NCBI GenBank assembly: GCA_011523635.1
Contig: WTGI01000013.1
Location: forward strand, 17,177 to 81,176
Length of the DNA: 64,000 nt
Reading direction: 5' to 3'
Source of the DNA: Acidimicrobiia bacterium
GTDB lineage: Bacteria > Actinomycetota > Acidimicrobiia > Spongiisociales > Spongiisociaceae
Of this stretch, positions 38,185 to 50,996 are shown one piece after another. Under the pieces are notes generated by a model that was not told where the DNA came from, ran no database searches, and saw only the letters and a list, made by a program, of their open reading frames with translations. The translations under genes and the position numbers were made by a program. Numbering within the stretch: position 1 is the stretch's first letter; every line of letters begins with the position of its first letter.

Positions 38185-38943
38185 GTGAAGATCGTCCGCA
38201 TGCAGACCCCCGAGGGCATCCGCTACGGCGCCGTCGAGCCGGAGGGCATCCGCATCCACGACGGGACTCCGTTCGTGGCCTGGCAGCCGACCGAGGTGGT
38301 GGTCGACTTCCGGGAGGCCCGCCTCCTGTCACCGGTGTTCCCGACCAAGGTGATCGGCGTCACCGCCAACTACGCCTCCGGCCCCGACGACGCCGGCAGT
38401 CTGCCGGAGAGGCCGAGCCTGTTCATGAAGCCCTCCACGTCGGTCATCGGCCCCGGCCAGGCGATCGTGCTGCCCGCCCTGTCCGGCCAGGTCCACCACG
38501 GAGCAGCCGTGGCCGTGGTCATCGGCAAGGTCGCCCGCAAGGTGGCCGTCGAGGATGCCTCCTCGGTGGTACTCGGCTACACCGCCGGTAACGACATCAC
38601 AGCCCTGGATCTGCTCCGCGAGGAAGGGCAGCCGGCTCGGGCCAAGAGCTTCGACTCGTTCTGCCCGCTCGGGCCGGCCATCGAAACCGAATACGATCCA
38701 CTGGAGGACTTCTCGCTCGAGTGCCACGTGAACGGCGTCTTGCGGCAGGGAACATCGATCAACGACATGATCTTCGGGGTGGCCGAGTTGATTTCCTTCG
38801 TGACCTACGTGATGACCCTCCTACCCGGTGACGTGATCCTCACCGGGACCCCTCCGGGCGCGGGGCCGGTGAAGAACGGCGATGTGGTGGAGGTGTCGCT
38901 CGAGGGAGTGGGCGCCCTCACCAATCCGGTGGTTTCCGAGTGA
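38185..38943 (+). CDS. Fumarylacetoacetate hydrolase (FAH) family protein
   Basis: 252 aa FAH-fold protein. A GGGAGGG SD precedes a GTG start. Overlaps gltX (ATGA-type). Confidence 0.75.
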   Translation: MKIVRMQTPEGIRYGAVEPEGIRIHDGTPFVAWQPTEVVVDFREARLLSPVFPTKVIGVTANYASGPDDAGSLPERPSLFMKPSTSVIGPGQAIVLPALSGQVHHGAAVAVVIGKVARKVAVEDASSVVLGYTAGNDITALDLLREEGQPARAKSFDSFCPLGPAIETEYDPLEDFSLECHVNGVLRQGTSINDMIFGVAELISFVTYVMTLLPGDVILTGTPPGAGPVKNGDVVEVSLEGVGALTNPVVSE

Positions 38944-40415
38944 GCGGTCATCATCCGGTCCGGGTCCGCATCGCCCCGTCGCCGACCGGCTACCTCCACG
39001 TCGGCAACGTGCGGGCGGCCCTGTTCAACTGGCTGTTCGCCCGCCGCCATGGCGGTGTTTTCATCATCCGCATCGACGACACCGACCGGGCCCGCTCCGA
39101 CGACCGCTACATAGAGGACATCGTCTCCGGGTTCCGCTGGCTGGGTCTGGATTGGGACGAGGGTGTGGAGGTGGGAGGGCCGCACGGTACCTATCGCCAG
39201 TCGGACCGCTTCGATCACTACCGGGCAGTGGCCGACCAACTGATCGACATTGGACGCGCCTACCACGACTTCCGGTCGGCGGAGGAGATGGATGATTTAC
39301 GGGCTCGGGCCCGGGCAGAGAAGAAACCCCCCGGCTACTACGTACGGCGTCCGCCCGGCAGCGACCCGGACACGGCCCGCCGGCGCCTCGGGGGCGGGGA
39401 GAGGGCGGTGGTTCGATTCTCCAGTCCGGGCCGGGCAGTGGGCTTCACGGACGTGGTCCGGGGCGAGGTGCGGTTCGAGGCGGACGCAATCGACGACTTC
39501 GTGATCCTGCGCTCCGACGGCTCACCGACCTACCACCTGGCGTCCACCGTCGATGACATCGACTACGGGATCACCCACGTGGCCCGGGGGGAGGACCTGC
39601 TCTCCTCGACCCCCAAGCACATCCTGATCACCGAGGCACTCGGCGGGGAGCGGCCCGTCTACGCCCACCTCCCGCTGCTCTTCGGCCCTGACGGGCGAAA
39701 GCTGTCGAAGCGGCACGGCGACACGTCCCTGCGCGCCTACCGGGAGGGCGGGTACCTACCGGAGGCGGTGTTCAACTACATGGGCCTGCTGGGCTGGTCG
39801 CTCGATCCGGACAACGAGGTCTTCGGCCGCGAGGAGGCCGTCGCCGCCTTCGATCTGGCGGATGTCCAGAAGAGCCCGGCGGTGTTCGATCCCGACAAGC
39901 TGGGCTGGCTGAACGGCGTGTACATGCGGTCGATGGCCACGGGACGCTTCACCGATCTGGCGGTCGCATCGGTCGAGGAGGACCTGGGGCGCGACCTGGA
40001 CGGCGACGAGCGGAGCCGCCTGGCCGGACTGGCGCCCCTCATACAGGAGCGGGCCAAGCTGACCACCGATGTCGGTCCGGCGGCGCGCTTCCTGTTCTCG
40101 GACGTCACCTATGACGAGAAGGCCTGGCGGAAGGTGATGAAATCCGATGCCCGGCGAGCTCTGGCCGCCGCCCGGAGGATGCTCGAGGGTGTCGGGGACT
40201 GGACCGCCGGGAACATCGAGAAGGCCTTGCGGGACATGCTGGCCGCCGAGAGCCTCAACCCCCGCAAGGGTTGGCAGCCGATCAGGGTGGCGATCACCGG
40301 TTCCAACATCTCACCACCCCTGTTCGAGAGCCTGGAGGCTCTCCCCAGGGAGGTGGCTCTTGCCCGGATCACCGGAGCCATCGCACGCCTCGACCTGCCG
40401 ACCGGCGCCGACTAG
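38940..40415 (+). CDS. gltX: Glutamyl-tRNA synthetase
   Basis: HIGH motif (PSPTGYLHVGNVRAA) and KMSKS (KLSKRHG). Confidence 0.92.
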   Translation: MSGHHPVRVRIAPSPTGYLHVGNVRAALFNWLFARRHGGVFIIRIDDTDRARSDDRYIEDIVSGFRWLGLDWDEGVEVGGPHGTYRQSDRFDHYRAVADQLIDIGRAYHDFRSAEEMDDLRARARAEKKPPGYYVRRPPGSDPDTARRRLGGGERAVVRFSSPGRAVGFTDVVRGEVRFEADAIDDFVILRSDGSPTYHLASTVDDIDYGITHVARGEDLLSSTPKHILITEALGGERPVYAHLPLLFGPDGRKLSKRHGDTSLRAYREGGYLPEAVFNYMGLLGWSLDPDNEVFGREEAVAAFDLADVQKSPAVFDPDKLGWLNGVYMRSMATGRFTDLAVASVEEDLGRDLDGDERSRLAGLAPLIQERAKLTTDVGPAARFLFSDVTYDEKAWRKVMKSDARRALAAARRMLEGVGDWTAGNIEKALRDMLAAESLNPRKGWQPIRVAITGSNISPPLFESLEALPREVALARITGAIARLDLPTGAD

Positions 40416-40418
40416 GGA

Positions 40419-41678
40419 CTAATCATCTAGTGCCCGATCAAGGGCGTTGATCAACCGGTCGATCTCGCCTTCGGTGTTGTAGTGGATGAAGGACATCCTC
40501 AGCACGCCGGGCTCCGCAGGTATCCGCATCTCATCGAGGAGGCGCGGGGCGTAGAAGTCCCCGACGCCGACCATCATCCGGCTACGGACCAGTGACTCCG
40601 CGACTTCCGCGACCGGGCGTCGCACCGGGACGATCGAGACGGTGGGGGCCCGCCGGGTGGCGTCGGTCGGGCCGGCCACCCGTACGTCGGCCCGCCCTTC
40701 CAGGTACCGCAGCAGCCGGTCCGCCAGGTTCGTCTCGTGGGCCCGGAACATGTCATGGACCGCCCGGCCTCGCTCCACCGGGGTCGCAGAGGGTCCTCCA
40801 TGGTGGGTATACAGGTCGTCCAGGTAGTCGATCACCCCTGCGCACGCCGCCACCTGGGCATGGTCTGGTCCGGCCGGCACCAGCTTGAAGCGGGGCTGGT
40901 CGGCCACGAAGTAGTGGCCCTCGTTCCCGAGCTGACCCGCCAGGTCGCGGCGGACGTACATCACCCCCTGGTGCGGACCCCACGTCTTGTAGGCGGAGAA
41001 GAGGTAGACATCGACCCCCAGTGCCCCTATGTCGGGTAGGCCGTGGGGTGCGTAGGACACCCCGTCGACCACCACCCGGGCGCCGACTTCCGCCGCCCTC
41101 GCCACCACATCGGTGACCGGGTTGATGGCGGCCACCACGTTCGAGGCGTGCGGGAAGGCGACCAGCCTGGTGCGCTCGGTCATCAACCTGTCGAGATCGG
41201 CTAGGTCCAGGGTTCCCTTCTCCGGATCCACCCGCCACTCCCGTACCACGATCCCCGTGGCCTCCAACCGCCTCCAAACACCGGCGTTGGCCTCGTGGTC
41301 CTGCGTGGACGCGACGATCTCGTCCCCGTCCCGCCACATCGACCGGAACGCCCGGGCCAGGACGTAGGTGTTCTGCGAGGTGGACGGCCCGAAATGGATC
41401 TCATCCACCCCCACGCCCGTCCACGCCGCCATTCGTCGGTAGGAGTGCTCCATCGCCTCGGTGGCCTCGATCGAGAGCGGGAAGGCATGATCGGGTTGTA
41501 CCTTGGTGCGCCGGTAGAAGCCGGTCAGGCGGTCGATCACCTGCCGGCAGGCGTAGGATCCGCCCGCGTTCTCGAAGTGGGCCCACCCGGCGAGACGGGC
41601 GTCGGAGAAGGCGGGAAACTGGCGGCGGGCGAACTGTACGTCCAAGGGCCGCAGCGAGATTTCCGGCTCGGGGTTCAC
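40419..41678 (-). CDS. Aminotransferase class V-fold PLP-dependent enzyme (cysteine desulfurase-like)
   Basis: 419 aa; SAYKTWGPHQG PLP-lysine-like motif. Confidence 0.65.
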   Translation of the reverse strand: MNPEPEISLRPLDVQFARRQFPAFSDARLAGWAHFENAGGSYACRQVIDRLTGFYRRTKVQPDHAFPLSIEATEAMEHSYRRMAAWTGVGVDEIHFGPSTSQNTYVLARAFRSMWRDGDEIVASTQDHEANAGVWRRLEATGIVVREWRVDPEKGTLDLADLDRLMTERTRLVAFPHASNVVAAINPVTDVVARAAEVGARVVVDGVSYAPHGLPDIGALGVDVYLFSAYKTWGPHQGVMYVRRDLAGQLGNEGHYFVADQPRFKLVPAGPDHAQVAACAGVIDYLDDLYTHHGGPSATPVERGRAVHDMFRAHETNLADRLLRYLEGRADVRVAGPTDATRRAPTVSIVPVRRPVAEVAESLVRSRMMVGVGDFYAPRLLDEMRIPAEPGVLRMSFIHYNTEGEIDRLINALDRALDD

Positions 41679-41748
41679 ACGGGCGAGTTTGCCAGATCGG
41701 GCCGGTCCGAGCCGCCTGCCGTCCAGCTACCGGTCCGGCTCGGACGCG

Positions 41749-42171
41749 CTAGGCGCGTTCGAGCAGGACGACCGGGATGACCCGCGACGTCTTGGCCTCG
41801 TATTCCGCGAACTGCGGATAGTCCCGCTTCTGCCTGGTCCAGATCCGGTCCCGCTCCGCTCCCGAGGCGACCCGGGCGCGGACCCGGATCGTCTCGGCCC
41901 CGACCTCCACCTCCGTTCCGGGATTAGCCACCACGTTGTGATACCAGTCGGGGTTGGTGTCCGCGCCGGCCTTGGAGGCAAATACGGCATAGCCATCCGC
42001 CAAGTCCTGGTACGCGAGCGGTGTGACCCGCCGGGTCCCCGTGCGGGCGCCCGTGTGATGAAGTAGCAGCAGCGTCCTCCCTTCGAACATTCCACCCACC
42101 TGACCGTCGTTGGCGCGGAACTCCTCGATGATCGCCGCATTCCAGTCGTTCACGTTCTTCCAATCGTTCAT
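41749..42171 (-). CDS. Deazaflavin (F420)-dependent nitroreductase/Ddn family protein (DUF385)
   Basis: Start at MNDWKN. Family motifs RTLLLLHHTGARTGTRRVTPLAY and NPDWYHNVVANP. Confidence 0.7.
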   Translation of the reverse strand: MNDWKNVNDWNAAIIEEFRANDGQVGGMFEGRTLLLLHHTGARTGTRRVTPLAYQDLADGYAVFASKAGADTNPDWYHNVVANPGTEVEVGAETIRVRARVASGAERDRIWTRQKRDYPQFAEYEAKTSRVIPVVLLERA

Positions 42172-42432
42172 CCGGCGCTCCGATCCTCGTTCTGCTGGAA
42201 GGCCTGTCGAAGCCTGCGCTGATGATGCCATGGTCCTGTAACAACCCGAAGCCGGGTCCGTCGATGCACTCAGCAGTAACGACGGATCGCTGGCGAAGAG
42301 CCCCATCGGCGCGCCGAGAACACGAATAGTCAGGGCTAGGGTATGCCGGACCGGGTCGTGTACAGCAGTTCCGGAGGCCCTATGCGTGACGGTGCGGACC
42401 CATGATGAGGTTCCGGGTTAGGAAGGTCGGCG

Positions 42433-43482
42433 ATGTCTACCCGGCGTAGGGTGGTGCTCGAGAATGCCCCGCTGCCTTCTCCCTTTCCCGAGGGCTGGTA
42501 CTTCGTCACGAGCCGTAGGGCACTGCTGGAAGCCGGGATCATCGAAAAGACATGGATGGGAGAGAACATCGTCGCCTGGAGCGACGAGAACGGCACCGTG
42601 TGCGTCGCCGGCGCCTACTGCCCGCATCTGGGCGCCGATCTGGGACCGACCGCAGGAGGTCGCATCTGTGAGGGGCGGCTGGTCTGCCCGTTCCATGGCT
42701 ACGAGTTCGACGCCACCGGGCAGTGCGTGGCCACCCCCTATTCCCCGCCGCCCACGACCGCGAGGTTACGCGTGTTCGAGACGCAGGAGATCGCGGGCCT
42801 GATCTTCGCCTGGTGGGGGATCGGGGGACGGGTGCCGCAATGGAGTCTGCCGGAGGATGAACCGGATCAGGCCGGCTGGACCGGTCTCAAGATCAGAACT
42901 CTCCGATTTCCCGGCCATCCCCAAGAGACGACGGAGAACTCGGTCGACGTGGGCCACCTGCGCTACGTCCACGGCTATGACAGCGTGGACCGCGTTGGGC
43001 GGGTGTCCGTGGACGGGCCGCGTCTGGAGAGCGACTTCGACTTCAGGCGCACCCGGAAGATTGCCGGACCACTGACCTCCACCTTCGAAGTCTCTGCCCG
43101 CACGCGAATCTTCGGGTTGGGTTACTCGTTCGTGGAGATCCGCGAACGCTCGATCGGGATGGATCTGCGCCTGTGGGTGCTGGCCACGCCGGTCGACGGT
43201 TCGCTCATCGACCTGTCGCTGGTTTCGCAGGTGCGGGAGATACGCAAGCCGGGGCGGTGGATCGCGGGCCTGGGGTTCCTGCCGGTGAAGTGGCGAGCCC
43301 CCATCATGAACCGGTTCATCGCGTCCCAGCAGTACCGGGATGTCCAGCAGGATGAGATCATCTGGAGCCGCAAGCAGTACCGATCCCGCCCGCTCCTGTG
43401 CCGTTCCGACGGCGAGATCATGCCGTTCCGGCGCTACTGCGCCCAGTTCTATCCCGACCCGGCCGATCTGGAGACTCCCTAG
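42433..43482 (+). CDS. Rieske [2Fe-2S] non-heme iron oxygenase (KshA/PAO/Neverland-like single-component alpha subunit)
   Basis: Rieske CPHLGADL...CPFHGYEF motif, and a mononuclear Fe motif E-x3-D-x2-H-x4-H (ENSVDVGHLRYVHG). Confidence 0.8.
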   Translation: MSTRRRVVLENAPLPSPFPEGWYFVTSRRALLEAGIIEKTWMGENIVAWSDENGTVCVAGAYCPHLGADLGPTAGGRICEGRLVCPFHGYEFDATGQCVATPYSPPPTTARLRVFETQEIAGLIFAWWGIGGRVPQWSLPEDEPDQAGWTGLKIRTLRFPGHPQETTENSVDVGHLRYVHGYDSVDRVGRVSVDGPRLESDFDFRRTRKIAGPLTSTFEVSARTRIFGLGYSFVEIRERSIGMDLRLWVLATPVDGSLIDLSLVSQVREIRKPGRWIAGLGFLPVKWRAPIMNRFIASQQYRDVQQDEIIWSRKQYRSRPLLCRSDGEIMPFRRYCAQFYPDPADLETP

Positions 43483-43505
43483 CCCGGGAATCTGACGGAA
43501 CTCCC

Positions 43506-45533
43506 TTACACCGGCAGTTCGTGCCTCTGCTCGGCGACGACGAACTTCAGCTTGTTGTTCACCGACGACGACGGGAAGGAGCTGATCTTCAGCTTGTAGT
43601 TGGCGGGAGAGATCTCGAGCCTGAAATGGTGAACGAGCAGCAGCAGATGGATCGCCAGGTGCAGGGATGTCCACCGGGACCCCAAACACGTATGGGTACC
43701 CAGACCGTACGGCGCGTAAGACGACCCGAGGTGCTCCTTGCGCGGAGGCAGGTAGCGATCGATGTCGAACGAGAAGGGATCGGGGAAGACGTCCTCCATG
43801 TAGTGCGTGGCCGTTTGGGCAATCAGAACCCGCGCTCCCTCCGGCAGCTCGTATCCCTCGACGGCGCACGTATTCATCACGTTTCGATATGAGGCCGGCA
43901 CGATCGGGTAGAGACGCAGGCACTCCATGATGAACCGGCGTGTGATGTCGATCCCTGGCCCGGTGAGTTCGTCACGATCCGGCGTCCCCTTGGCGAACAG
44001 GGCGTCTGCCTCATTGCTAATACTCTCGTGGAACTCGGGCTGCGACAACATCGCGTAGATGATTAGGCCGAGTTGATCACCGACATACATGCTTGCGATC
44101 AGCGCCGCCGAGAGCACGAAGGGCAGGTTCGACTCCGGGAGGAACTGCCGATCGCTCGCGTGCATGCTCAGCAGGTCATCGGCGAGGTCGCGAGGGCACC
44201 CAGCCCGCTGGGCGGGTGTGTGGCTACTCAGGACTCGTTCCATGACCTCTCCGACCAGCTTCGCCCGGCGCTTCATTGCGGGCGTACGCAGCATCAACTT
44301 GGGCAGGTTCCCGATTACATGGGTCTGCAGGGCTCTTTCCTTGAATTTGTGCAGGTCCGCGACGACATCCTGAGTATCGATGCTGACCATGGCGGGCGAC
44401 AACGTTGAATTGACCAACTGCCTGCACATCGTCTTTGCAGGGAGCTTGTCACCGATAGACCAAGCCGCCATGTAGGCCCGGGCGGTGGAGTAGCACTCAT
44501 CCAGCCGAGTCTCCAACCTGGTGCGGGAATAGGCCGGTTGCATGGACTTGCGGTACCGGAAATGATCCGCACCGTCCAGGGTGGGCAGGATTCCTGATCC
44601 TCCGTATACCTTTTCGAAATCCTCCAGATAATCTCTGGATCTCAGGTACATCCGCCCATGCCGATGTGCCCAGTGATTCATCTCGGGGCCGGCGAGCAAA
44701 ATCATCGGGCCGGTCAAGGGCGGGCGGAGCTCGAACACCGGTCCATATTCTTTGGCAAGCTCTGCAAAGAAAGCCGGTAAATTACCTTGGCGAGCGGGCC
44801 GGCTGCGCAGCAACCTACGAAGCGGGACAACCGGAATCGGCTTAGCGAAAGCGGAAGACCTGAACAACGACACAGACAGGTTATGGCCAACTGCTGCGGC
44901 GATGGACCTGCCTATCAGGTCCATCTTGGAGATGAACTCGACACGCTTCTCCGACTCTTCATCGAGTTCGAATATGAATCGTAGGACATCACATGTATTG
45001 ATAAGACAGATTATGATGATATCTCTGGGGTCCGGAATCTCGTTAGCAAAGATTGCTCTGCTGAGACGTGTCTTTACGAAGTCAACGGCAGTACCTTCTC
45101 CAGATGTGGCGTAAGGACCCTTCTGCCATGCGCCCCGGGCCAGCGACCAGAAATCGCCGTCATGGTGCCGGAGTATCTCCAGGTCGACCAGCCGGTCAAG
45201 GGTCAAGTCGATAATCGATTCCGCGCGCGGGGCGAGACGTTCGATCCAGTACTGGGCGTCTCGTTGAACCGGTTCGGCCGCGATTTGCTCGAGGATAGGA
45301 TCTAGGGCAGGATCGCCCGTTTCCGTTCGGTCCAGGAGGATCAACGAATCCATATCCGTATCGATACGGGATAGGAGCGACAGCTCTCCCAGCACGCCTC
45401 CGATAACGGCACAGTTCAAATCCCACCCAGGAACCTGCCGGAAGTAGCCACTCTCCTCGTTGAGGAGTGTGAGGACGAGTTCGTCGACCAAACTGAGCTT
45501 CTGAGTGACCGCACTGTCGGCGGTTAGAGTCAT
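43506..45533 (-). CDS. Cytochrome P450 with N-terminal GPP34/GOLPH3-like domain (fusion protein)
   Basis: N-terminal ~220 aa match the GPP34 pattern (LSLVDELVLTLLNEESG...AVIGGVLGELSLLSRI). The C-terminus carries P450 EXXR (ECLR), PERF-like DPFSFDIDRY and a heme loop YGLGTHTCLG. This part of the gene appears visibly AT-richer by eye (not computed). Confidence 0.75.
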   Translation of the reverse strand: MTLTADSAVTQKLSLVDELVLTLLNEESGYFRQVPGWDLNCAVIGGVLGELSLLSRIDTDMDSLILLDRTETGDPALDPILEQIAAEPVQRDAQYWIERLAPRAESIIDLTLDRLVDLEILRHHDGDFWSLARGAWQKGPYATSGEGTAVDFVKTRLSRAIFANEIPDPRDIIIICLINTCDVLRFIFELDEESEKRVEFISKMDLIGRSIAAAVGHNLSVSLFRSSAFAKPIPVVPLRRLLRSRPARQGNLPAFFAELAKEYGPVFELRPPLTGPMILLAGPEMNHWAHRHGRMYLRSRDYLEDFEKVYGGSGILPTLDGADHFRYRKSMQPAYSRTRLETRLDECYSTARAYMAAWSIGDKLPAKTMCRQLVNSTLSPAMVSIDTQDVVADLHKFKERALQTHVIGNLPKLMLRTPAMKRRAKLVGEVMERVLSSHTPAQRAGCPRDLADDLLSMHASDRQFLPESNLPFVLSAALIASMYVGDQLGLIIYAMLSQPEFHESISNEADALFAKGTPDRDELTGPGIDITRRFIMECLRLYPIVPASYRNVMNTCAVEGYELPEGARVLIAQTATHYMEDVFPDPFSFDIDRYLPPRKEHLGSSYAPYGLGTHTCLGSRWTSLHLAIHLLLLVHHFRLEISPANYKLKISSFPSSSVNNKLKFVVAEQRHELPV

Positions 45534-45666
45534 CCGTCCGGTCCCTCCGTCACCAACCTTCGAATCTTAGCATGAACCACGCATGAAGAAAGTATGAAGA
45601 AGCTGTTCGGGAGCATGAAGCGTAGAGAGGTGGTATCCACTGAGGGGGTCCGGTAGGCTGGGCGCC

Positions 45667-46437
45667 ATGGCTCAACTACAACTGCGTCCACTGGGTGTCG
45701 GCGAAATCGTCGACGCCACCTTCACCGTCTACCGCCGCCGCTTCGGCCCGATGTTCGCCATCGCGCTGATGCTCGTGTTCATCCCTTTCCTCGTCAGCCT
45801 GGTCGGGGGCTGCAGCCTTGACTCGGGCGGCATCACTACGTGCACGTCTCCCATCGGTTGGCTCGGGTATTACGTAAGCGTTGTCGGTTCGTTCGTGGCG
45901 AGCGTGGCTGCCGTCCTCGTGGCTGCCGGAGCGTATGCAGATGTCCCGTCCGACTGGCGGAGCGCGATGAACACCGGAATCCGGAGGATCGTCCCGATCA
46001 TCGCGGCGACGATCGTGGCCGGGGTTTTGATCGCCATCGGATTCCTGCTCGTGATCATCCCCGGGATCTTCCTTGCCGTGTCGCTGGCGGTGGTCTGGGA
46101 GGCTCTGATCATTGAAGATGTCGGTCCGATGGAGAGCATCAAGCGGTCGTGGCGCCTGGTGGCGGGCGAGCGCTGGCGGGTGTTCGGCGCCGGCTTCCTC
46201 GTCATAGTCCTGTCGGCCATCTTCTTCGGGATCGTCTCGGCCGTGGTCTGGCTCATCCTCTCGACCGGCCTCGGCGTGAGCGGTGGGATTGCCGGCTACC
46301 TCGTCCAGCAGGTCGCCACCCTGCTGTCGGTCCCGCTGACGGCCGCGCTCGGCACGGTCATCTATCTCGACCTGCGGGTCCGCAAGGAGTCGCTGAGCGC
46401 AGCCGAACTCGCCGCCGCTCTGTCCGAACAAGGCTGA
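45667..46437 (+). CDS. Hypothetical polytopic membrane protein
   Basis: 256 aa, about six TM helices. Confidence 0.55.
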   Translation: MAQLQLRPLGVGEIVDATFTVYRRRFGPMFAIALMLVFIPFLVSLVGGCSLDSGGITTCTSPIGWLGYYVSVVGSFVASVAAVLVAAGAYADVPSDWRSAMNTGIRRIVPIIAATIVAGVLIAIGFLLVIIPGIFLAVSLAVVWEALIIEDVGPMESIKRSWRLVAGERWRVFGAGFLVIVLSAIFFGIVSAVVWLILSTGLGVSGGIAGYLVQQVATLLSVPLTAALGTVIYLDLRVRKESLSAAELAAALSEQG

Positions 46438-46526
46438 TTCTCAACTAGCCTCCGAATCCGAGCAACATCCCACCGTTGATCGACGGTTCTGCGCAACCAC
46501 ATGGAACGCGTAGGATCGGAACCAGC

Positions 46527-46600
46527 GGCCCCGTCGTCCAGCCGGCCTAGGACGCTGGCCTTTCAAGCCAGAAACGCGGGTTCGAATCCCGTCGGGGCCA
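46527..46600 (+). tRNA. tRNA-Glu (anticodon UUC)
   Basis: Manual cloverleaf: acceptor GGCCCCG/CGGGGCC, anticodon stem CTGGC/GCCAG, loop CTTTCAA, T-loop TTCGAAT, discriminator A. No encoded CCA. Confidence 0.85.
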
Positions 46601-46735
46601 CTGTTTCTCTTCGGGGGCTGCGGCGTGTCGTCGCGGCTGCGACCGAGCGGAACGCGTTGCCCGAGCTACGGCCGCGCTCACGAATCGGGCTGCTACCGTC
46701 TCCTGCGCCCCACCCGGCCCTTTCCTGAGGTGTAG

Positions 46736-47932
46736 ATGACCGGGGACAGACACTTCTACGTCGAGACGTTCGGCTCGGTCCGGTTGAGTTCGTTCCGGCT
46801 CGGCCGATCGCCCTTTGCCGACCGGTACGTGACGGATCAGACCGTCTTCGGCCTGTACTGCGGTCGCCTGTATCCCATCAAGGCGTACCCTGACGAGGAC
46901 CCCGTTCCCCAGTACTGGAAGTTGCGGAACGGGGTGATGCTGTACGACGTCCCCGAAAAGCCCCTCGAGATCATCGGCCCGGAAGCCGCCAGGATGCTCG
47001 AGAGGGTCCTCACCTGCAGGGTCGGCACGCTCGCAGTGGGTCGGGCTCGGTACGGAATCGCCTGCAATGAGGACGGCACCGTTCTGATGGACGGTGTGAT
47101 CATGCGCCTCGCGCCGGATCGCTTCTGGTATGTGAAGGCGAACGGTGAATTCGAGGGTTGGCTCACGGCGCACGCCATGGGGCTCGATGCCGAAGTCTCC
47201 GATCCGGATTCGAGAGTCCTCCAGATTCAGGGACCGAGTTCGCTCGACGTGCTGGACGCGGCGATCGGCGGTGGACTATCGACCGACTTCAGGTACTTCC
47301 ACGCCGGATTCTTCGAAATCGACGGACAGACACTGTGGGTGTCCCGGACCGGATGGACGGGCGAGGCGGGGATCGAGATCTACTGCAACAGCGGTCCGGA
47401 GGCGACGGATCATGACGCCCTCTGGGATTACCTGCTCGCGTGCGGTGAGCCCTTCGGCATGGAGTTCAGCTCGTCTTCATCGATGGGCATACGGCGCATC
47501 GAGGCCGGCATCCTGGACAACGGCACGGATATCGAGCCGGACCTGACCCCGTACGGCGCCGGCCTCGGGAATTTTGTTGCACTCGACAAGGGGGACTTCA
47601 TCGGACGCTCCGCGCTGGCGAGGGCCGATCGCAGCCAACTCCTGTTCGGCCTGGTTTGTGCTACCGCAGCACCGGACGCCGGGATGCAGGTGCACCTCGA
47701 GAACGGCCCGGTCGGGCATATCACGATCGGCACCTGGTCGCCCTCGCTGGAGGCAGGAGTCGGCTACGTGCGCTTCGACCGGCCTCTGCCGGGCGGCGAC
47801 TGGCTCGGCAAGACGGTCTCGTTGATCGACCATAAGGGAGCTCCTCACCCGGCGACCGTTGACACCCTGCCGTTCGTGGATAAGGAGAAGCGGTTGCCCC
47901 GCGCCGAATGGAGTGGCGGACGGTCCGGTTGA
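46736..47932 (+). CDS. Aminomethyltransferase (GcvT) family folate-binding protein
   Basis: 398 aa with a GcvT fold (…VSRTGWTGEAGIEIY…). A GAGGTG SD precedes ATG 46736. Confidence 0.7.
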   Translation: MTGDRHFYVETFGSVRLSSFRLGRSPFADRYVTDQTVFGLYCGRLYPIKAYPDEDPVPQYWKLRNGVMLYDVPEKPLEIIGPEAARMLERVLTCRVGTLAVGRARYGIACNEDGTVLMDGVIMRLAPDRFWYVKANGEFEGWLTAHAMGLDAEVSDPDSRVLQIQGPSSLDVLDAAIGGGLSTDFRYFHAGFFEIDGQTLWVSRTGWTGEAGIEIYCNSGPEATDHDALWDYLLACGEPFGMEFSSSSSMGIRRIEAGILDNGTDIEPDLTPYGAGLGNFVALDKGDFIGRSALARADRSQLLFGLVCATAAPDAGMQVHLENGPVGHITIGTWSPSLEAGVGYVRFDRPLPGGDWLGKTVSLIDHKGAPHPATVDTLPFVDKEKRLPRAEWSGGRSG

Positions 47933-47959
47933 CACCGGCCTGCCGATACCTGGTATCTT

Positions 47960-48031
47960 GCGGGCCTGATCGGGAGTGGTGTAATCGGCAGCACGACAGG
48001 TTCTGGCCCTGTTAGTAGGGGTTCGAGTCCT
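47960..48031 (+). tRNA. tRNA-Gln (anticodon CUG)
   Basis: Manual cloverleaf: acceptor TCGGGAG/CTCCCGA, D-stem GTGT/GCAC, anticodon stem ACAGG/CCTGT, loop TTCTGGC, T-loop TTCGAGT. Confidence 0.85.
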
Positions 48032-48209: not shown

Positions 48210-48914
48210 TCAGGCCCGTCCGTAGACTGGTACAACGGCTCCTGACATGACACCCGACTCCCCAGTCAGGATGAACTCCGCCACCGCAGCGATCTCGTCA
48301 GGGGTGGGCCACTTGACGTACTCCGCGAAAGGCAGCGCCCGGCGGGTGGCCGGGGTATCCATCACCGACGGCAGGATCACGTTGACGGTGACGTCGGCGT
48401 CCTCCAACTCAGCCGCGGCGGTCTTGGCCAGGGCGACCACCCCCGCCTTGGCGATGTTGAAGGCCGCCTGCCCGGGTGGGTTGTCCACTACCGCCCGGCT
48501 CCCGACCAGCAGGATGCGGCCCCCGCCGGTCTCGAGGTGGGGGACGGCGGCCCGCACGGTGTAGAAGGCCGACCGCAGGTTCAGGTCGATCATCCAGTCG
48601 AACCGCACATCGTCGGTGTCCTTCACATCCCGTCCGGCGGCCCAGCCTCCCACGAGACAGGCCACCGCGTCGATACGCCCGAACCGGGCTGCCACCCTGG
48701 CCATGAAGTCTTCGACCTCCCCGGATTCGGTGGCGTTGACGCGGCGGAGGACCAGTTGATCCTCATCGAAGGGGAACCGTTCCTCGAACTCGTCAGTGTC
48801 GATGGGTCTGAGATAGGTGGCGCCGATGCGGTAGCCCCGGCGGATCAGCCGCCCGGTGAGGGCGGCGCCGAGCCCGCTGGTGGCGCCGACGATGACTGCT
48901 ACACGACCGCTCAT
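48210..48914 (-). CDS. SDR family oxidoreductase
   Basis: Start at MSGRVAVIVGATSGLGAAL (TGxxxGxG). The track ORF extends further upstream, antisense to the neighbouring gene. Confidence 0.75.
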   Translation of the reverse strand: MSGRVAVIVGATSGLGAALTGRLIRRGYRIGATYLRPIDTDEFEERFPFDEDQLVLRRVNATESGEVEDFMARVAARFGRIDAVACLVGGWAAGRDVKDTDDVRFDWMIDLNLRSAFYTVRAAVPHLETGGGRILLVGSRAVVDNPPGQAAFNIAKAGVVALAKTAAAELEDADVTVNVILPSVMDTPATRRALPFAEYVKWPTPDEIAAVAEFILTGESGVMSGAVVPVYGRA

Positions 48915-48921
48915 GATGAGA

Positions 48922-50241
48922 TCAGGATATAACGATCCGCTCGGTGGCGGGACCATTCCCCGATCTGTCCACGATCCACAGGTCGGCGACGTTGGTACCC
49001 GTTCTCCCGGTCCGGAGCAGCCCCCCTGCCGCCTCCAGGTACGGATAGGAGTCGCAGGCGTCCAGGTGTCGGCGCGCCGGCGCCGGATCGGTGACCGTGG
49101 CGCCGTCCACGCAGCCACCGGCCGCATCGGTCGGGCCGTCCACACCGTCGGTTCCGAAGGCAAGAAACCGGTGCCGGCTCCCGGCGATCTCGATGCCTGC
49201 GGCGACGGCGGCATGCTGGTTGCGACCCCCCTTGCCCGGCCCGCGTACCTCCACTGTGGTCTCTCCGGCCAGGACCCGGACCGTGCCCGCCGGAGTGGCT
49301 TCCAGCTCCCTCAGGACGGCTTCCTCGGTGTCCCCGGCCAGCCGCTCGGGGACCGGCGACACGTCCAGGCCGGCCGACGACAGGAACCGGACAGCCGCCC
49401 GCCCCGCGGTCATCCCGTCAGCCAGGATCAGGGCGAGATCCTTCCCCGGCACGCGGTGGGTACCGAAGCGCTCGACCCCGGCGTCGGCCACGCGCCGGAC
49501 CCGCTCCGCCGTGCTGCCCCGGATCGGGTAACGGTCGAGTGTCTCGCTCAAGGAAGCCGGGCTCCGGGGTGCGGTCACGGTGGGGCCGGACGCCACCACC
49601 GCCGGGTCGTCGCCCACGTCCGAGACCATCAGCGTGACCACCGGGCTCCGGCATCGTGCCGCCAACCGGCCGGCCTTCACCCGCGATACCGACTGTCGGA
49701 CCCGGTTGATCGTCTCGATGGGGGCGCCCGAGCGGAGCAGTTGGTCGTTCAGGTCCTGGATGTCGTCGAGGCTGAGGCCCTCGGCCGGTGCCTCCAGCAA
49801 CGCCGATCCGCCCCCGGACACGAGAGCCAGCAGGAGCTCGTCCGGCCCCACGCCTTGCGCCATGTCGATGGCGCGTTCGGCCGCTCTGACGCTTCCCTCA
49901 TCGGGCACCGGATGGCCTCCCACCAGCACTTCCGCCCAACCAGGCGCCTCCTCGGCCTGGTCGGTCACCACCAGGCCTCGCGACACCAGCGGTCCCAGGG
50001 TGTCCGCCGCGCCACGGCTCATACCGGTGGCCGCCTTGCCGACCGCCAGCACCGCCACCCGCCGCGCCCCGATGAAGTGCCCTCCGGCGTGAAGCCCACC
50101 CTCCGCCTTGCCGAGCGCAGCGCGCACCAACCGGCGGGGATCCACCTCCTCCAATGCCGCATCCACGGCGCCGAGCAGGCGGCCCGTGGCCCGAGGGCGG
50201 ATGGCCCGGAGATCGCCGAGCCGCTCGCCGGCCAGTCCCAT
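48922..50241 (-). CDS. Glycerate kinase (MOFRL/GlxK-type, glycerate 2-kinase family)
   Basis: 439 aa with MOFRL N- and C-terminal domains (…LVSGGGSALLEAP…GTDGVDGPTDAAG…). Confidence 0.75.
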   Translation of the reverse strand: MGLAGERLGDLRAIRPRATGRLLGAVDAALEEVDPRRLVRAALGKAEGGLHAGGHFIGARRVAVLAVGKAATGMSRGAADTLGPLVSRGLVVTDQAEEAPGWAEVLVGGHPVPDEGSVRAAERAIDMAQGVGPDELLLALVSGGGSALLEAPAEGLSLDDIQDLNDQLLRSGAPIETINRVRQSVSRVKAGRLAARCRSPVVTLMVSDVGDDPAVVASGPTVTAPRSPASLSETLDRYPIRGSTAERVRRVADAGVERFGTHRVPGKDLALILADGMTAGRAAVRFLSSAGLDVSPVPERLAGDTEEAVLRELEATPAGTVRVLAGETTVEVRGPGKGGRNQHAAVAAGIEIAGSRHRFLAFGTDGVDGPTDAAGGCVDGATVTDPAPARRHLDACDSYPYLEAAGGLLRTGRTGTNVADLWIVDRSGNGPATERIVIS

Positions 50242-50996
50242 CAGGGTGTGATCCGTTTGAACGCCTCGGCTCGCGAAAGGCCGGCCTCGTCACCGGCCGT
50301 CCGGGCGCGGTCGTCGATCTCGAGACGGAACGCTTCGGTTGCCTCCTCCGAGTGCCCGGCGCCGTCCATCGTGGTGGTGGCCTGGCTGGAGTGCGACAGC
50401 AGGGCGGCGACCTTGTGCTCCACGAAACCGGTCACGTCCTCGTGATGATCCGGCTCGTCCGCCGCCCACAGCAGCATGGTCCCAGGACGGTGATGGGCCA
50501 GGCCACCGGCCAGTTGCTCCGGGAAGAAGAGGTGGTCCCGGGCGGCCACCACCCCGTCAATGGCCGCCCATCCGGTCGCCCGGTGGTCGGGATGCAGCAT
50601 GTAGCGGCGCCACGGATCGTGGGTGAGGACCACGTCGGGCCGCAGCCGGCGGATCCACAGGCAAACCTCGGCGCGCAACTCCATGGTGTACTCCAACTCG
50701 CCATCGACGTGGGAGAGGTTGAGGACGCTGTCCACGCCGAGAGCCTCGGCGGCGCGGGTCTGCTCGTTCATTCTCATCCGCACCAGGTCGGACGGGCTGA
50801 GCGAGGGATCCCACGATCCCTTGGAGCCGTCGGTCAGCACCAGGATGGTCGCCTCCGTTCCTGCGGCGGCCCACTTGGCCAGGGTCCCGCCGGCTCCGAA
50901 CTCGGCGTCGTCGGGATGTGCGCCGATGGCCAGCGCTCGCCTCGGGACCGGTAGGTCGGAGGTCATGCCCTGCTCTGGGACGCGGTAATCGACCAT
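50241..50996 (-). CDS. PIG-L/LmbE family N-acetylglucosaminyl deacetylase
   Basis: AHPDDAEFGAGGTLAKW motif; 251 aa. Confidence 0.75.
   Translation of the reverse strand: MVDYRVPEQGMTSDLPVPRRALAIGAHPDDAEFGAGGTLAKWAAAGTEATILVLTDGSKGSWDPSLSPSDLVRMRMNEQTRAAEALGVDSVLNLSHVDGELEYTMELRAEVCLWIRRLRPDVVLTHDPWRRYMLHPDHRATGWAAIDGVVAARDHLFFPEQLAGGLAHHRPGTMLLWAADEPDHHEDVTGFVEHKVAALLSHSSQATTTMDGAGHSEEATEAFRLEIDDRARTAGDEAGLSRAEAFKRITP

Follow-up and report, generated by a model that had tools for sequence, protein, structure and literature searches.

What does a protein that joins a GPP34/GOLPH3-like domain to a cytochrome P450 do in a bacterium, and how did its gene come to lie beside that of a Rieske oxygenase, between gltX and a tRNA-Glu gene? 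The question is raised by 64,000 nucleotides of contig WTGI01000013.1 (positions 17,177 to 81,176; assembly GCA_011523635.1, an Acidimicrobiia bacterium), here called the window; coordinates without a prefix refer to it, and those with a prefix (L047 and so on) to loci of relatives. We found that the fusion and the Rieske gene, and no others, make up a 3.5-kb accessory insert (42153-45665, no strand assigned) in a slot of variable content, that both were horizontally acquired and are spreading among sponge symbionts, and that in relatives the fusion often keeps company with genes for sterol-type methyltransferases and lipid exporters. With this gene context in view, we take the likeliest function of the two enzymes to be that of a pair that tailors a sterol-like lipid at the membrane, at about even odds.

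The boundaries of the insert were read from the gene contexts of homologues of the neighbouring class-V enzyme in relatives. A sequence-only reading of the window had taken five genes between gltX (38940-40415, +) and tRNA-Glu(UUC) (46527-46601, +; ARAGORN) for one module, and all five are present where it placed them: a class-V pyridoxal-phosphate enzyme (40419-41678, −; PF00266, 162.9 bits; 278 bits against TIGR01976, cysteine-desulfurase-like of the VC1184 type, below its cut-off of 352), a DUF385/Ddn-like F420H2-dependent reductase (41749-42171, −; PF04075 F420H2_quin_red, E 2.5e-35), a KshA-type Rieske oxygenase subunit (349 aa; 42433-43482, +; PF00355 and PF19298 KshA_C), the GPP34::cytochrome P450 fusion (675 aa in a single open reading frame (ORF); 43506-45533, −; PF05719 and PF00067), which is convergent with the Rieske gene, and a DUF7847 membrane protein (256 aa; 45667-46437, +; PF25231), whose 5-6 hydrophobic segments agree with the six transmembrane helices proposed for it. 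The unity of the five did not survive comparison with L047, where the class-V protein is 72% identical and the order is gltX, class-V gene, Ddn gene, 611 bp, DUF7847 gene and tRNA-Glu(UUC), without a Rieske gene and without a fusion. Because both flanks are collinear with this empty site by blastn (window 38186-42152 with L047 11702-7486; window 45666-46601 with L047 6874-5900), the inserted segment is 42153-45665; gltX, the class-V gene, Ddn (the left flank), DUF7847 (the right flank) and the tRNA belong to the backbone. In L046 (class-V protein 76% identical), a McrBC restriction system fills the same slot between Ddn and DUF7847 (L046:2987-7007) and DUF7847 occurs in three tandem paralogues, and in L035, an Acidimicrobiia locus with a fusion 85% identical to that of the window, the slot holds the fusion, a sterol-C24-methyltransferase (SMT)-like gene and the Rieske gene. 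Since it is empty in one relative and differently filled in the others, the slot is a variable hotspot for accessory genes. Ddn adjoins the class-V gene in both L046 and L047, which lack the insert, and the class-V gene is kept beside gltX and the Ddn-like gene in relatives; the region of a further class-V homologue, P0419, is not syntenic with the window.

The insert occupies one shared site in the Acidimicrobiia clade L003-L006, L034, L035 and L041 and is therefore vertically inherited within that clade, and in L001, L002 and L007 the fusion is located elsewhere, which gives at least three different contexts within the Acidimicrobiia. Of vertical synteny with native GC, the pattern that would speak against acquisition, we thus found a shared site within one clade, but that site is empty in L047. 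The position next to a tRNA gene, which had been read as a sign of acquisition, is no such sign. A tRNA-targeted island is ruled out: the gene table shows no integrase within 10 kb on either side of the insert, no att-like repeat of the tRNA was found (the sole repeat of its sequence is the paralogous tRNA-Glu(CUC)), the tRNA is kept in empty-site L047, and the insert is located 5' of tRNA-Glu(UUC), with the DUF7847 gene between them, which is the wrong geometry, tRNA-targeted islands having their cargo 3' of the tRNA. A second variable slot lies between tRNA-Glu(UUC) and tRNA-Gln/tRNA-Glu(CUC) (46602-47969; L047:1694-5899); its cargo is a GcvT-family aminomethyltransferase-like gene in the window (46736-47932; best NCBIfam similarity to demethylases) and a helix-turn-helix protein with a ParE/PhdYeFM toxin-antitoxin pair in L047.

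The fusion gene has a GC content of 58.2%, against a window mean of 67.2% (standard deviation 2.4% for 2-kb windows; z = -3.7), and is the lowest-GC 2-kb stretch of the whole 64 kb; the insert as a whole has 60.7% and its flanks 68.0% and 64.9%. GC at third codon positions (GC3) is 0.72 in the fusion gene and 0.64 in its GPP34-coding part, compared with 0.81-0.89 in the adjoining genes. The lower-GC patch that had been judged by eye is thus confirmed by a sliding-window check, but it is confined to the fusion gene, the Rieske (GC3 0.83), Ddn and class-V genes being native in composition. The GPP34-coding part (44889-45491), although the AT-richest piece of the gene, is the most conserved as protein. 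Across 42 loci the GC3 of the fusion relative to its flanks was noisy (the ORF caller retains shadow ORFs), with a steady deficit only in the Acidimicrobiia clade. In the window, long ORFs of 251-529 aa that are antisense to or overlap real genes were seen at 42766-43923 (−), 48856-50445 (+) and 45676-46431 (−), the one of 529 aa having no Pfam match and overlapping a MOFRL gene called on the opposite strand; as is usual for DNA rich in GC, these are shadow ORFs. A promoter and terminator scan gave hits at chance level only.

The distribution of the fusion points in the same direction as its composition. A scan with one genome per species (39 loci) found it in metagenome-assembled genomes (MAGs) titled Acidimicrobiia, Chloroflexota/Dehalococcoidia, Latescibacterota, Alphaproteobacteria, Gammaproteobacteria and Candidatus Palauibacter, the last of which we take to be Gemmatimonadota (our own assignment, not in the record). 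The homologues span at least six phyla and are 61-76% identical between phyla: 74-76% between Latescibacterota and Chloroflexota, 71% between Alphaproteobacteria and Dehalococcoidia, 70% between Candidatus Palauibacter and Gammaproteobacteria, and 63-65% between the window fusion and those of Chloroflexota. These values are far above those of housekeeping proteins at that depth. The Rieske protein, which has over 120 clusters of at least 71% identity, is likewise 60-74% identical across phyla. Because the slot is empty or differently filled in relatives, the GC of the fusion deviates by z = -3.7 and identities across phyla are high, the Rieske and fusion genes are horizontally acquired and are spreading among sponge symbionts; the acquisition suggested by the sequence-only reading therefore holds for these two genes and not for the other three. 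Two fusions, L021:10001-11995 in a Rhodospirillales bin and L022:3419-5413 in a Chloroflexota bin, are 99.85% identical and have the same neighbours, which reflects either a mis-binned contig or a very recent transfer between phyla.

The fusion itself is intact and widespread. Searches with hidden Markov models (HMMs), which bore out the two-domain architecture proposed from the letters, placed PF05719 GPP34 at aa 15-215 (44889-45491, −; 97.8 bits, cut-off 29.1; model positions 1-198 of 201), in the lowest-GC part of the gene, and PF00067 p450 at aa 249-661 (43551-44789, −; 124 bits). A database search returned more than 120 clusters with 68-98% identity to the window fusion, nearly all of 675 aa and all with both Pfam domains; an exhaustive search gave 363 matches below E = 1e-30 among 50%-identity representatives, and among the representatives listed were 46 further full-length homologues (640-720 aa), 42 of which went into the alignment and show 24-50% identity with the window fusion. 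The number of full-length homologues of this architecture, which exceeds 160, and the exact window protein on 7 independent contigs exclude a frameshift or assembly artefact. The AlphaFold2 (AF2) model (pLDDT 88.7, pTM 0.86), in which the linker is short and just 3 residues are disordered, suggests that the fusion is a fixed, rigid two-domain enzyme, and neither a signal peptide nor a transmembrane segment was found in it. The family alignment referred to below consists of 49 fusion sequences.

The architecture, which the sequence-only reading did not recognize as characterized, is already known, having been published in 2025, and it is uncharacterized in the biochemical sense. Ferreira et al. 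2025 (Microbiome 13:4; PMC11706023) catalogued it as 'GPP34_L', a monophyletic group of 656 GPP34+P450 proteins that are confined to the genomes of sponge symbionts from many phyla (Acidimicrobiia among them), are not found in free-living sister lineages and are expressed in situ; rare GPP34+Rieske and GPP34+ABC-ATPase fusions were reported there from other symbionts. With the same two domains and length, the window protein belongs, judged by its sequence, to this family, and its homologues likewise come from sponge-symbiont MAGs of many phyla. It is 98% identical to a protein on VXRE01000092.1 from the Acidimicrobiia MAG SB0664_bin_25, which is likely of sponge origin, since its bin name resembles that of the I. 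ramosa bin SB0661_bin_34 (PMC11706023), and other relatives bear sponge-derived names (Candidatus Spongiisocius, Poriferisocius). The window copy, or a near-identical one, is very probably already part of the dataset of Ferreira et al.

The P450 domain has the residues expected of a heme-thiolate enzyme. The K-helix EXXR motif (E537-C-L-R540; 43914-43925, −) and the arginine of the PERF region (R593) are invariant across the 49 family members, as are C616 and G610 of the heme-thiolate loop Y609-G-L-G-T-H-T-C616-L-G (43680-43709, −), in which G612 and H614 are nearly so. The I-helix segment is atypical (A480-S-M-Y483-V484-G-D486; 44076-44096, −). Pairwise HMM alignments to CYP51 (AGHHTSS) and CYP725A4 (ASYDTT) put Tyr483-Val484 at the acid and alcohol positions, and the alternative given by the MAFFT family alignment has the acid deleted and Tyr at the Thr position, so that the acid-alcohol pair is gone either way. 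The I-helix of the window clade (14/49 sequences) is one residue shorter and lacks the (A/G)Gx(D/E)T(T/S) pair, while most other fusions keep AGxDT or AGxET and a few have His or other residues. Oxygen chemistry in the window clade may therefore depart from the canonical scheme; what is generally known of P450s suggests substrate-assisted or peroxide-type activation as possibilities.

In a fold comparison of the model CYP51 was the top match, with BM3 heme domains among the close folds, and membership in CYP51 was suggested by this match and by an ERG4/24 homologue beside the L001 fusion. CYP51 enzymes are recognized by an I-helix GQHT/S, a B'-helix YxxF/LxxPxFGxxVxY/FD and at least ~30% identity to a known CYP51. 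The window protein is ~20% identical to the Methylococcus CYP51, has ASMYVGD in the I-helix and no B' signature, and reaches no NCBIfam equivalog, and CYP51 membership was rejected. Set beside the sterol 14alpha-demethylase CYP51 and the cholesterol 24-hydroxylase CYP46A1, the window protein also stands apart in its partner: the CYP51-ferredoxin fusion of Methylococcus (6mcw) contains a ferredoxin, whereas the partner here is an N-terminal non-redox domain. The same applies to P450BM3 (CYP102A1) and CYP116B, which resemble the window fusion in joining a P450 to an accessory domain, but one that is a C-terminal, electron-supplying reductase rather than an N-terminal non-redox domain of membrane-adaptor type. 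A stand-alone P450 relative (P0189) lies on a 1.5-kb contig.

The Rieske protein (PF00355 58.6 bits, PF19298 KshA_C 80.5 bits) has both iron sites. The ligands of the [2Fe-2S] cluster, C63-x-H65 and C85-x2-H88 (42619-42696, +), and those of the mononuclear iron, E168-x3-D172-x2-H175-x4-H180 (42934-42972, +), stand in invariant alignment columns and are unchanged in 19 homologues. Its description as a single-component Rieske oxygenase with intact sites is thus right as to the sites, but a single component cannot be claimed: the oxygenase subunit is not fused to a reductase, nor is one encoded within 10 kb. Its best solved relative in the PDB is KshA, the 3-ketosteroid 9alpha-hydroxylase (E 4.8e-23), with which it shares the Rieske and KshA_C domains and the intact metal sites; it differs in that the match covers the N-terminal 180 residues only and no KshB is encoded nearby. 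Ferredoxin-reductase (KshB-like) or steroid-degradation genes were found neither within 10 kb on either side nor recurrently in 42 loci, though a partner may be encoded elsewhere in the genome. Neverland-type cholesterol 7-desaturases are a further comparison. The sterol C-4 methyl oxidase SdmA was considered and rejected, as the match to NF052579 was confined to the Rieske domain and scored 27.1 bits where 600 are required.

The gene neighbourhood of the fusion was surveyed in 42 loci, with ORFs called 10 kb to each side and clustered into families. A Rieske/KshA_C gene stands beside the fusion in 19 of them, Sterol_MT_C-type methyltransferase genes occur near it in 16, from four phylum-level groups and in varied gene order, and an amine-oxidase-fold protein binding flavin adenine dinucleotide (FAD) in 12, for which an NCBIfam scan gave N-terminal FAD-fold matches only. 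The MMPL/HAE3 transporter of the resistance-nodulation-division (RND) type (800-900 aa; 14 loci) has matches to the Sterol-sensing and Patched sterol-sensing-domain families of Pfam and resembles HpnN (hopanoid), BstA (sterol) and Patched/NPC1, but its scores (HAE3 229.7 bits, HpnN 124.9 bits) are all below equivalog cut-offs and it has no counterpart in the window. With the AcrB efflux triplets of Gram-negative hosts, which include a membrane fusion protein (MFP) and an outer-membrane protein and were found in 7-9 loci (an AcrB-type RND gene in 9), RND exporters total ~23. A squalene-epoxidase family gene (PF08491, 79-88 bits) was found in two Dehalococcoidia loci (L031:4002-5390, L033:14005-15447) and an ERG4/ERG24 sterol-reductase homologue in one locus, 0.8 kb upstream of the fusion (L001:8055-9194). 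Since order and orientation differ between loci and phyla, the association of the fusion with its neighbours has outlived rearrangement. Ddn, the class-V gene, gltX and DUF7847 accompany the fusion only in the Acidimicrobiia clade that is syntenic with the window.

The SMT-like genes are of two types. Pfam Sterol_MT_C was found in both neighbours that were scanned, L009:1140-2186 and L035:12066-13277 (83.8 and 55.9 bits; cut-off 21.7). One type has the canonical region I YEYGWGxSFHF (the distal copy in L009, and L027, L029 and L030), and the other a divergent FMVFGW(G/S)ESLHF; in about a dozen loci, genes of this second type are separated from the fusion by only 15-50 bp. Copies of the divergent type, with region I YYDLC(S/G)EFMVFGW(G/S)ESLHF, are L009:12065-13129, L014:11974-13029, L016:12034-13089, L017:11978-13075, L018:12080-13132, L035:12066-13277 (the copy with Sterol_MT_C confirmed) and L038:12043-13098. 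To judge from region I, the divergent type may act on a different substrate or with different regiochemistry.

These neighbourhoods fit the sterol substrate at which the sequence-only reading had guessed. They do not support the F420-dependent reductase that it included in the oxidative module, for Ddn is backbone and was never seen with the fusion outside the syntenic Acidimicrobiia clade. In the pathway that we propose, the Rieske protein and the fusion would be the core of a cassette circulating horizontally among sponge symbionts of many phyla, to which fuller versions would add an SMT-like enzyme, an amine-oxidase-fold FAD oxidoreductase and an RND lipid exporter, either HpnN/Patched-like with a sterol-sensing domain or, in Gram-negative hosts, of AcrB type. 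Within the bacterial cell, both oxygenases would hydroxylate or desaturate a polycyclic, sterol-like lipid of symbiont or host origin, possibly providing an olefin or hydroxyl for the partner tailoring enzymes. The GPP34 domain, packed on the P450, would replace the membrane anchor of eukaryotic P450s and dock the enzyme at the surface of the cytoplasmic membrane or at the exporter, where the lipid substrate would be found. Such a docking role is consistent with the fusions of GPP34 to a Rieske protein and to an ABC ATPase (PMC11706023) and with the adaptor role of GOLPH3.

Several points weigh against this proposal. The substrate and reaction proposed for the family are deduced from gene context, and the docking role of GPP34 is argued by analogy, from the fusion and from neighbour patterns. 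No SMT, exporter or sterol-synthesis gene was found in the window when all its ORFs were searched by phmmer with SMT, MMPL, amine-oxidase and ERG4/24 queries, and there are no redox-partner genes within 10 kb of the insert. The structural similarity of the model to sterol P450s is not discriminating. The SMT-like gene of L035 scores slightly higher on CMAS (62.8 bits) than on Sterol_MT_C, and the divergent type, which shows the tightest linkage to the fusion, may thus act on something other than a sterol. Finally, the loci come from MAGs, some of which may be mis-binned, as the pair L021/L022 illustrates.

A more specific version of the sterol proposal, which we regard as distinctly unlikely, is that the fusion, the Rieske protein, the divergent SMT, the FAD oxidoreductase and the HpnN/Patched-like exporter form an unrecognized bacterial pathway for the unconventional sterol side chains of sponges. 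The oxygenases would then introduce a double bond or hydroxyl, the divergent SMT would alkylate a non-canonical position such as C-26, and the product would be exported to the envelope or the host; GPP34 would represent an ancient module by which lipid enzymes dock to membranes or transporters, and not a reader of phosphatidylinositol 4-phosphate (PI4P). The published symbiont sterol clusters, which speak for the sterol proposal in general, offer a parallel in hosts, phyla, horizontal transfer and SMT homologues: Kelly et al. 2022 (PMC9531527) found horizontally transferred ERG24-CYP51-OSC clusters (LSS-containing 'CSGs'; OSC, oxidosqualene cyclase) in the same symbiont classes, and Brown et al. 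2023 (PMC10070321) showed that symbiont SMTs are active and make 24-isopropyl side chains, C-26 methyltransferases being undiscovered. Those clusters, however, contain OSC, ERG24, SdmAB and a bona fide CYP51 homologue as a separate gene (PMC9531527, PMC10070321), none of which is in the cassette described here, whereas the GPP34-P450, the KshA-like Rieske protein, the FAD oxidoreductase and the RND exporter of this cassette lie outside the published clusters.

Among the other explanations, the one that survives best, although we still judge it rather unlikely, is detoxification coupled to efflux, in which the oxygenases would oxidize toxic hydrophobic metabolites of sponge or microbes (terpenoids, alkaloids), transferases would conjugate the products and RND pumps would expel them, as an analogue of phase I-III metabolism. 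The fusion is repeatedly and tightly linked to RND pumps, and the family is limited to chemically rich sponge hosts (PMC11706023). Other clades of the fusion, which have the canonical AGxDT I-helix, also have different neighbours: co-oriented genes for a sulfotransferase and an Acyl_transf_3 protein come after the fusion in L048:8001-12080, Acyl_transf_3 alone does so in L049:8001-11275, and in L051:8001-16140 an AcrB-OEP-MFP efflux operon begins 2 bp after the fusion stop, with a second copy of the fusion 8 kb upstream. These apparent operons are a context of tailoring enzymes, and P0124, a fusion with 40% identity, has RND parts and a Rieske/KshA_C gene on its flanks. However, the commonest tailoring neighbour has Sterol_MT_C, the mark of a sterol-olefin C-methyltransferase and not of a conjugating enzyme, hosts of Gram-positive type have an HpnN/Patched-like exporter that contains a sterol-sensing domain, and squalene-epoxidase-like and ERG4/24 neighbours exist.

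The proposal of Ferreira et al. (PMC11706023), whose paper covers distribution, phylogeny and expression and nowhere mentions sterols, is that GPP34 serves as a secreted, PI4P-binding effector that blocks phagosome maturation; the role of the P450, which would be accessory, is left unexplained. In its favour, the domain is homologous to GOLPH3/Vps74, and the confinement of the family to sponge symbionts with expression in situ would suit an effector. This homology is secure: a profile built from 22 bacterial GPP34 domains matches GOLPH3 (3kn1, E 7.2e-13) and Vps74 (2zii, E 2.9e-10) in the PDB, where a single-sequence phmmer search with the domain gave no match, and the AF2 model keeps the helical core and the beta-hairpin of the GOLPH3 fold. 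The PI4P pocket of GOLPH3 reportedly comprises W81, R90, R171 and R174 and is said to have been described by Dippold and by Wood in 2009. Their counterparts in the window protein by alignment are P35 (two residues ahead of W37), I44, E105 and I108. At the R90 position, 34 of the 49 fusions have Ala and none a basic residue; at that of R171, 34 have Asp or Glu; and at that of R174, just 21 have Arg, the window clade having Ile. As far as the alignment goes, the pocket is not conserved in the fusions and the domain probably does not bind PI4P. Overall, conservation of the domain equals or exceeds that of the P450 domain (GPP34 93% and P450 85% in a close relative; means of 40% and 37%). The bacterial domain differs from GOLPH3/Vps74 further in being fused to an enzyme and having no Golgi glycosyltransferase clients. 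The absence of a signal peptide, the invariant catalytic residues of a P450 that would need heme, O2 and bacterial redox partners, the metabolic and transport-related gene context and a model that suggests a rigid two-domain enzyme rather than a tethered effector likewise speak against this proposal, and we regard an effector as very unlikely.

Equally improbable in our view is a catabolic role, in which the Rieske protein, like KshA, would initiate ring opening by 9alpha-hydroxylation and the P450, like CYP125/CYP142, would oxidize the side chain, the symbiont feeding on sterols of its host. KshA is the best solved relative and KshA_C is present, and a context that looks more catabolic was seen in L002 (Candidatus Poriferisocius), where two tandem GPP34-P450 paralogues lie beside amine-oxidase-fold and Rieske/KshA_C genes (L002:7795-12148) and the further neighbours include several short-chain dehydrogenases/reductases (SDRs), a flavin monooxygenase, another P450, a family-III CoA-transferase and an acyl-CoA dehydrogenase; CoA-transferase, acyl-CoA dehydrogenase, SDR and amidohydrolase genes near two fusions and a Rieske gene would suit catabolism. 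Against this stand the lack of KshB, KstD, Hsa and beta-oxidation genes in the window and in most loci, the restriction of the KshA match to the N-terminal 180 residues, and the linkage to a methyltransferase and an exporter, which is anabolic or tailoring in character.

Lower still do we place the modification of acyl lipids, in which the SMT-like and FAD proteins would correspond to the BfaB/BfaA pair, which makes 10-methyl branched fatty acids, and the oxygenases would act on acyl chains or on non-sterol membrane lipids. The divergent SMT-like neighbour does match CMAS (62.8 bits in L035) as well as cyclopropane-synthase models of NCBIfam, and the amine-oxidase-fold FAD protein of 12 loci could be the second member of such a pair. 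Sterol_MT_C, however, is present in both scanned SMT-like neighbours (55.9-83.8 bits), and to our knowledge it is not expected in CMAS-type fatty-acid methyltransferases; several neighbours moreover have the canonical sterol-binding YEYGWGxSFHF, and sterol-sensing-domain transporters and squalene-epoxidase-like genes occur among them. A five-gene oxidative island integrated at tRNA-Glu, suggested by the contiguity of the genes between gltX and the tRNA, has next to no probability left, as it is refuted by L047, which keeps the class-V, Ddn and DUF7847 genes and the tRNA without the Rieske gene and the fusion, as these three genes have native GC3 and are seen with the fusion in the syntenic clade only, and as neither an integrase nor an att repeat was found.

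In the literature searched, no paper links the GPP34-P450 fusion to sterols, and relative to that literature four things are new: the association with sterol-type tailoring and export genes, the lost PI4P pocket, the clade with an atypical I-helix and the insertion slot. For a family of roughly 650 sponge-restricted enzymes, the sole published proposal, a PI4P effector, is weakened by the non-conserved pocket and the metabolic gene context, and the links to an SMT-like enzyme, a sterol-sensing exporter and a steroid-type Rieske protein provide concrete sets of enzymes for tests with sterols. The rigid N-terminal non-redox adaptor and the clade without an acid-alcohol pair are unusual features for P450 enzymology, and the family bears on the original role of GPP34 in bacteria, the domain from which GOLPH3 appears to descend. 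If the enzymes do tailor sterol-like lipids, they, and notably the divergent SMT subtype, would be candidates for steps in the synthesis of unconventional side chains of sponge sterols; if they serve the unconventional side chains themselves, symbionts, and not sponges alone, would supply precursors of the 'sponge biomarkers' 26-methylstigmastane and 24-isopropylcholestane, which bears on the question of who makes the unusual sterols of demosponges and hence on how safely the Neoproterozoic 'sponge biomarker' steranes can be read.

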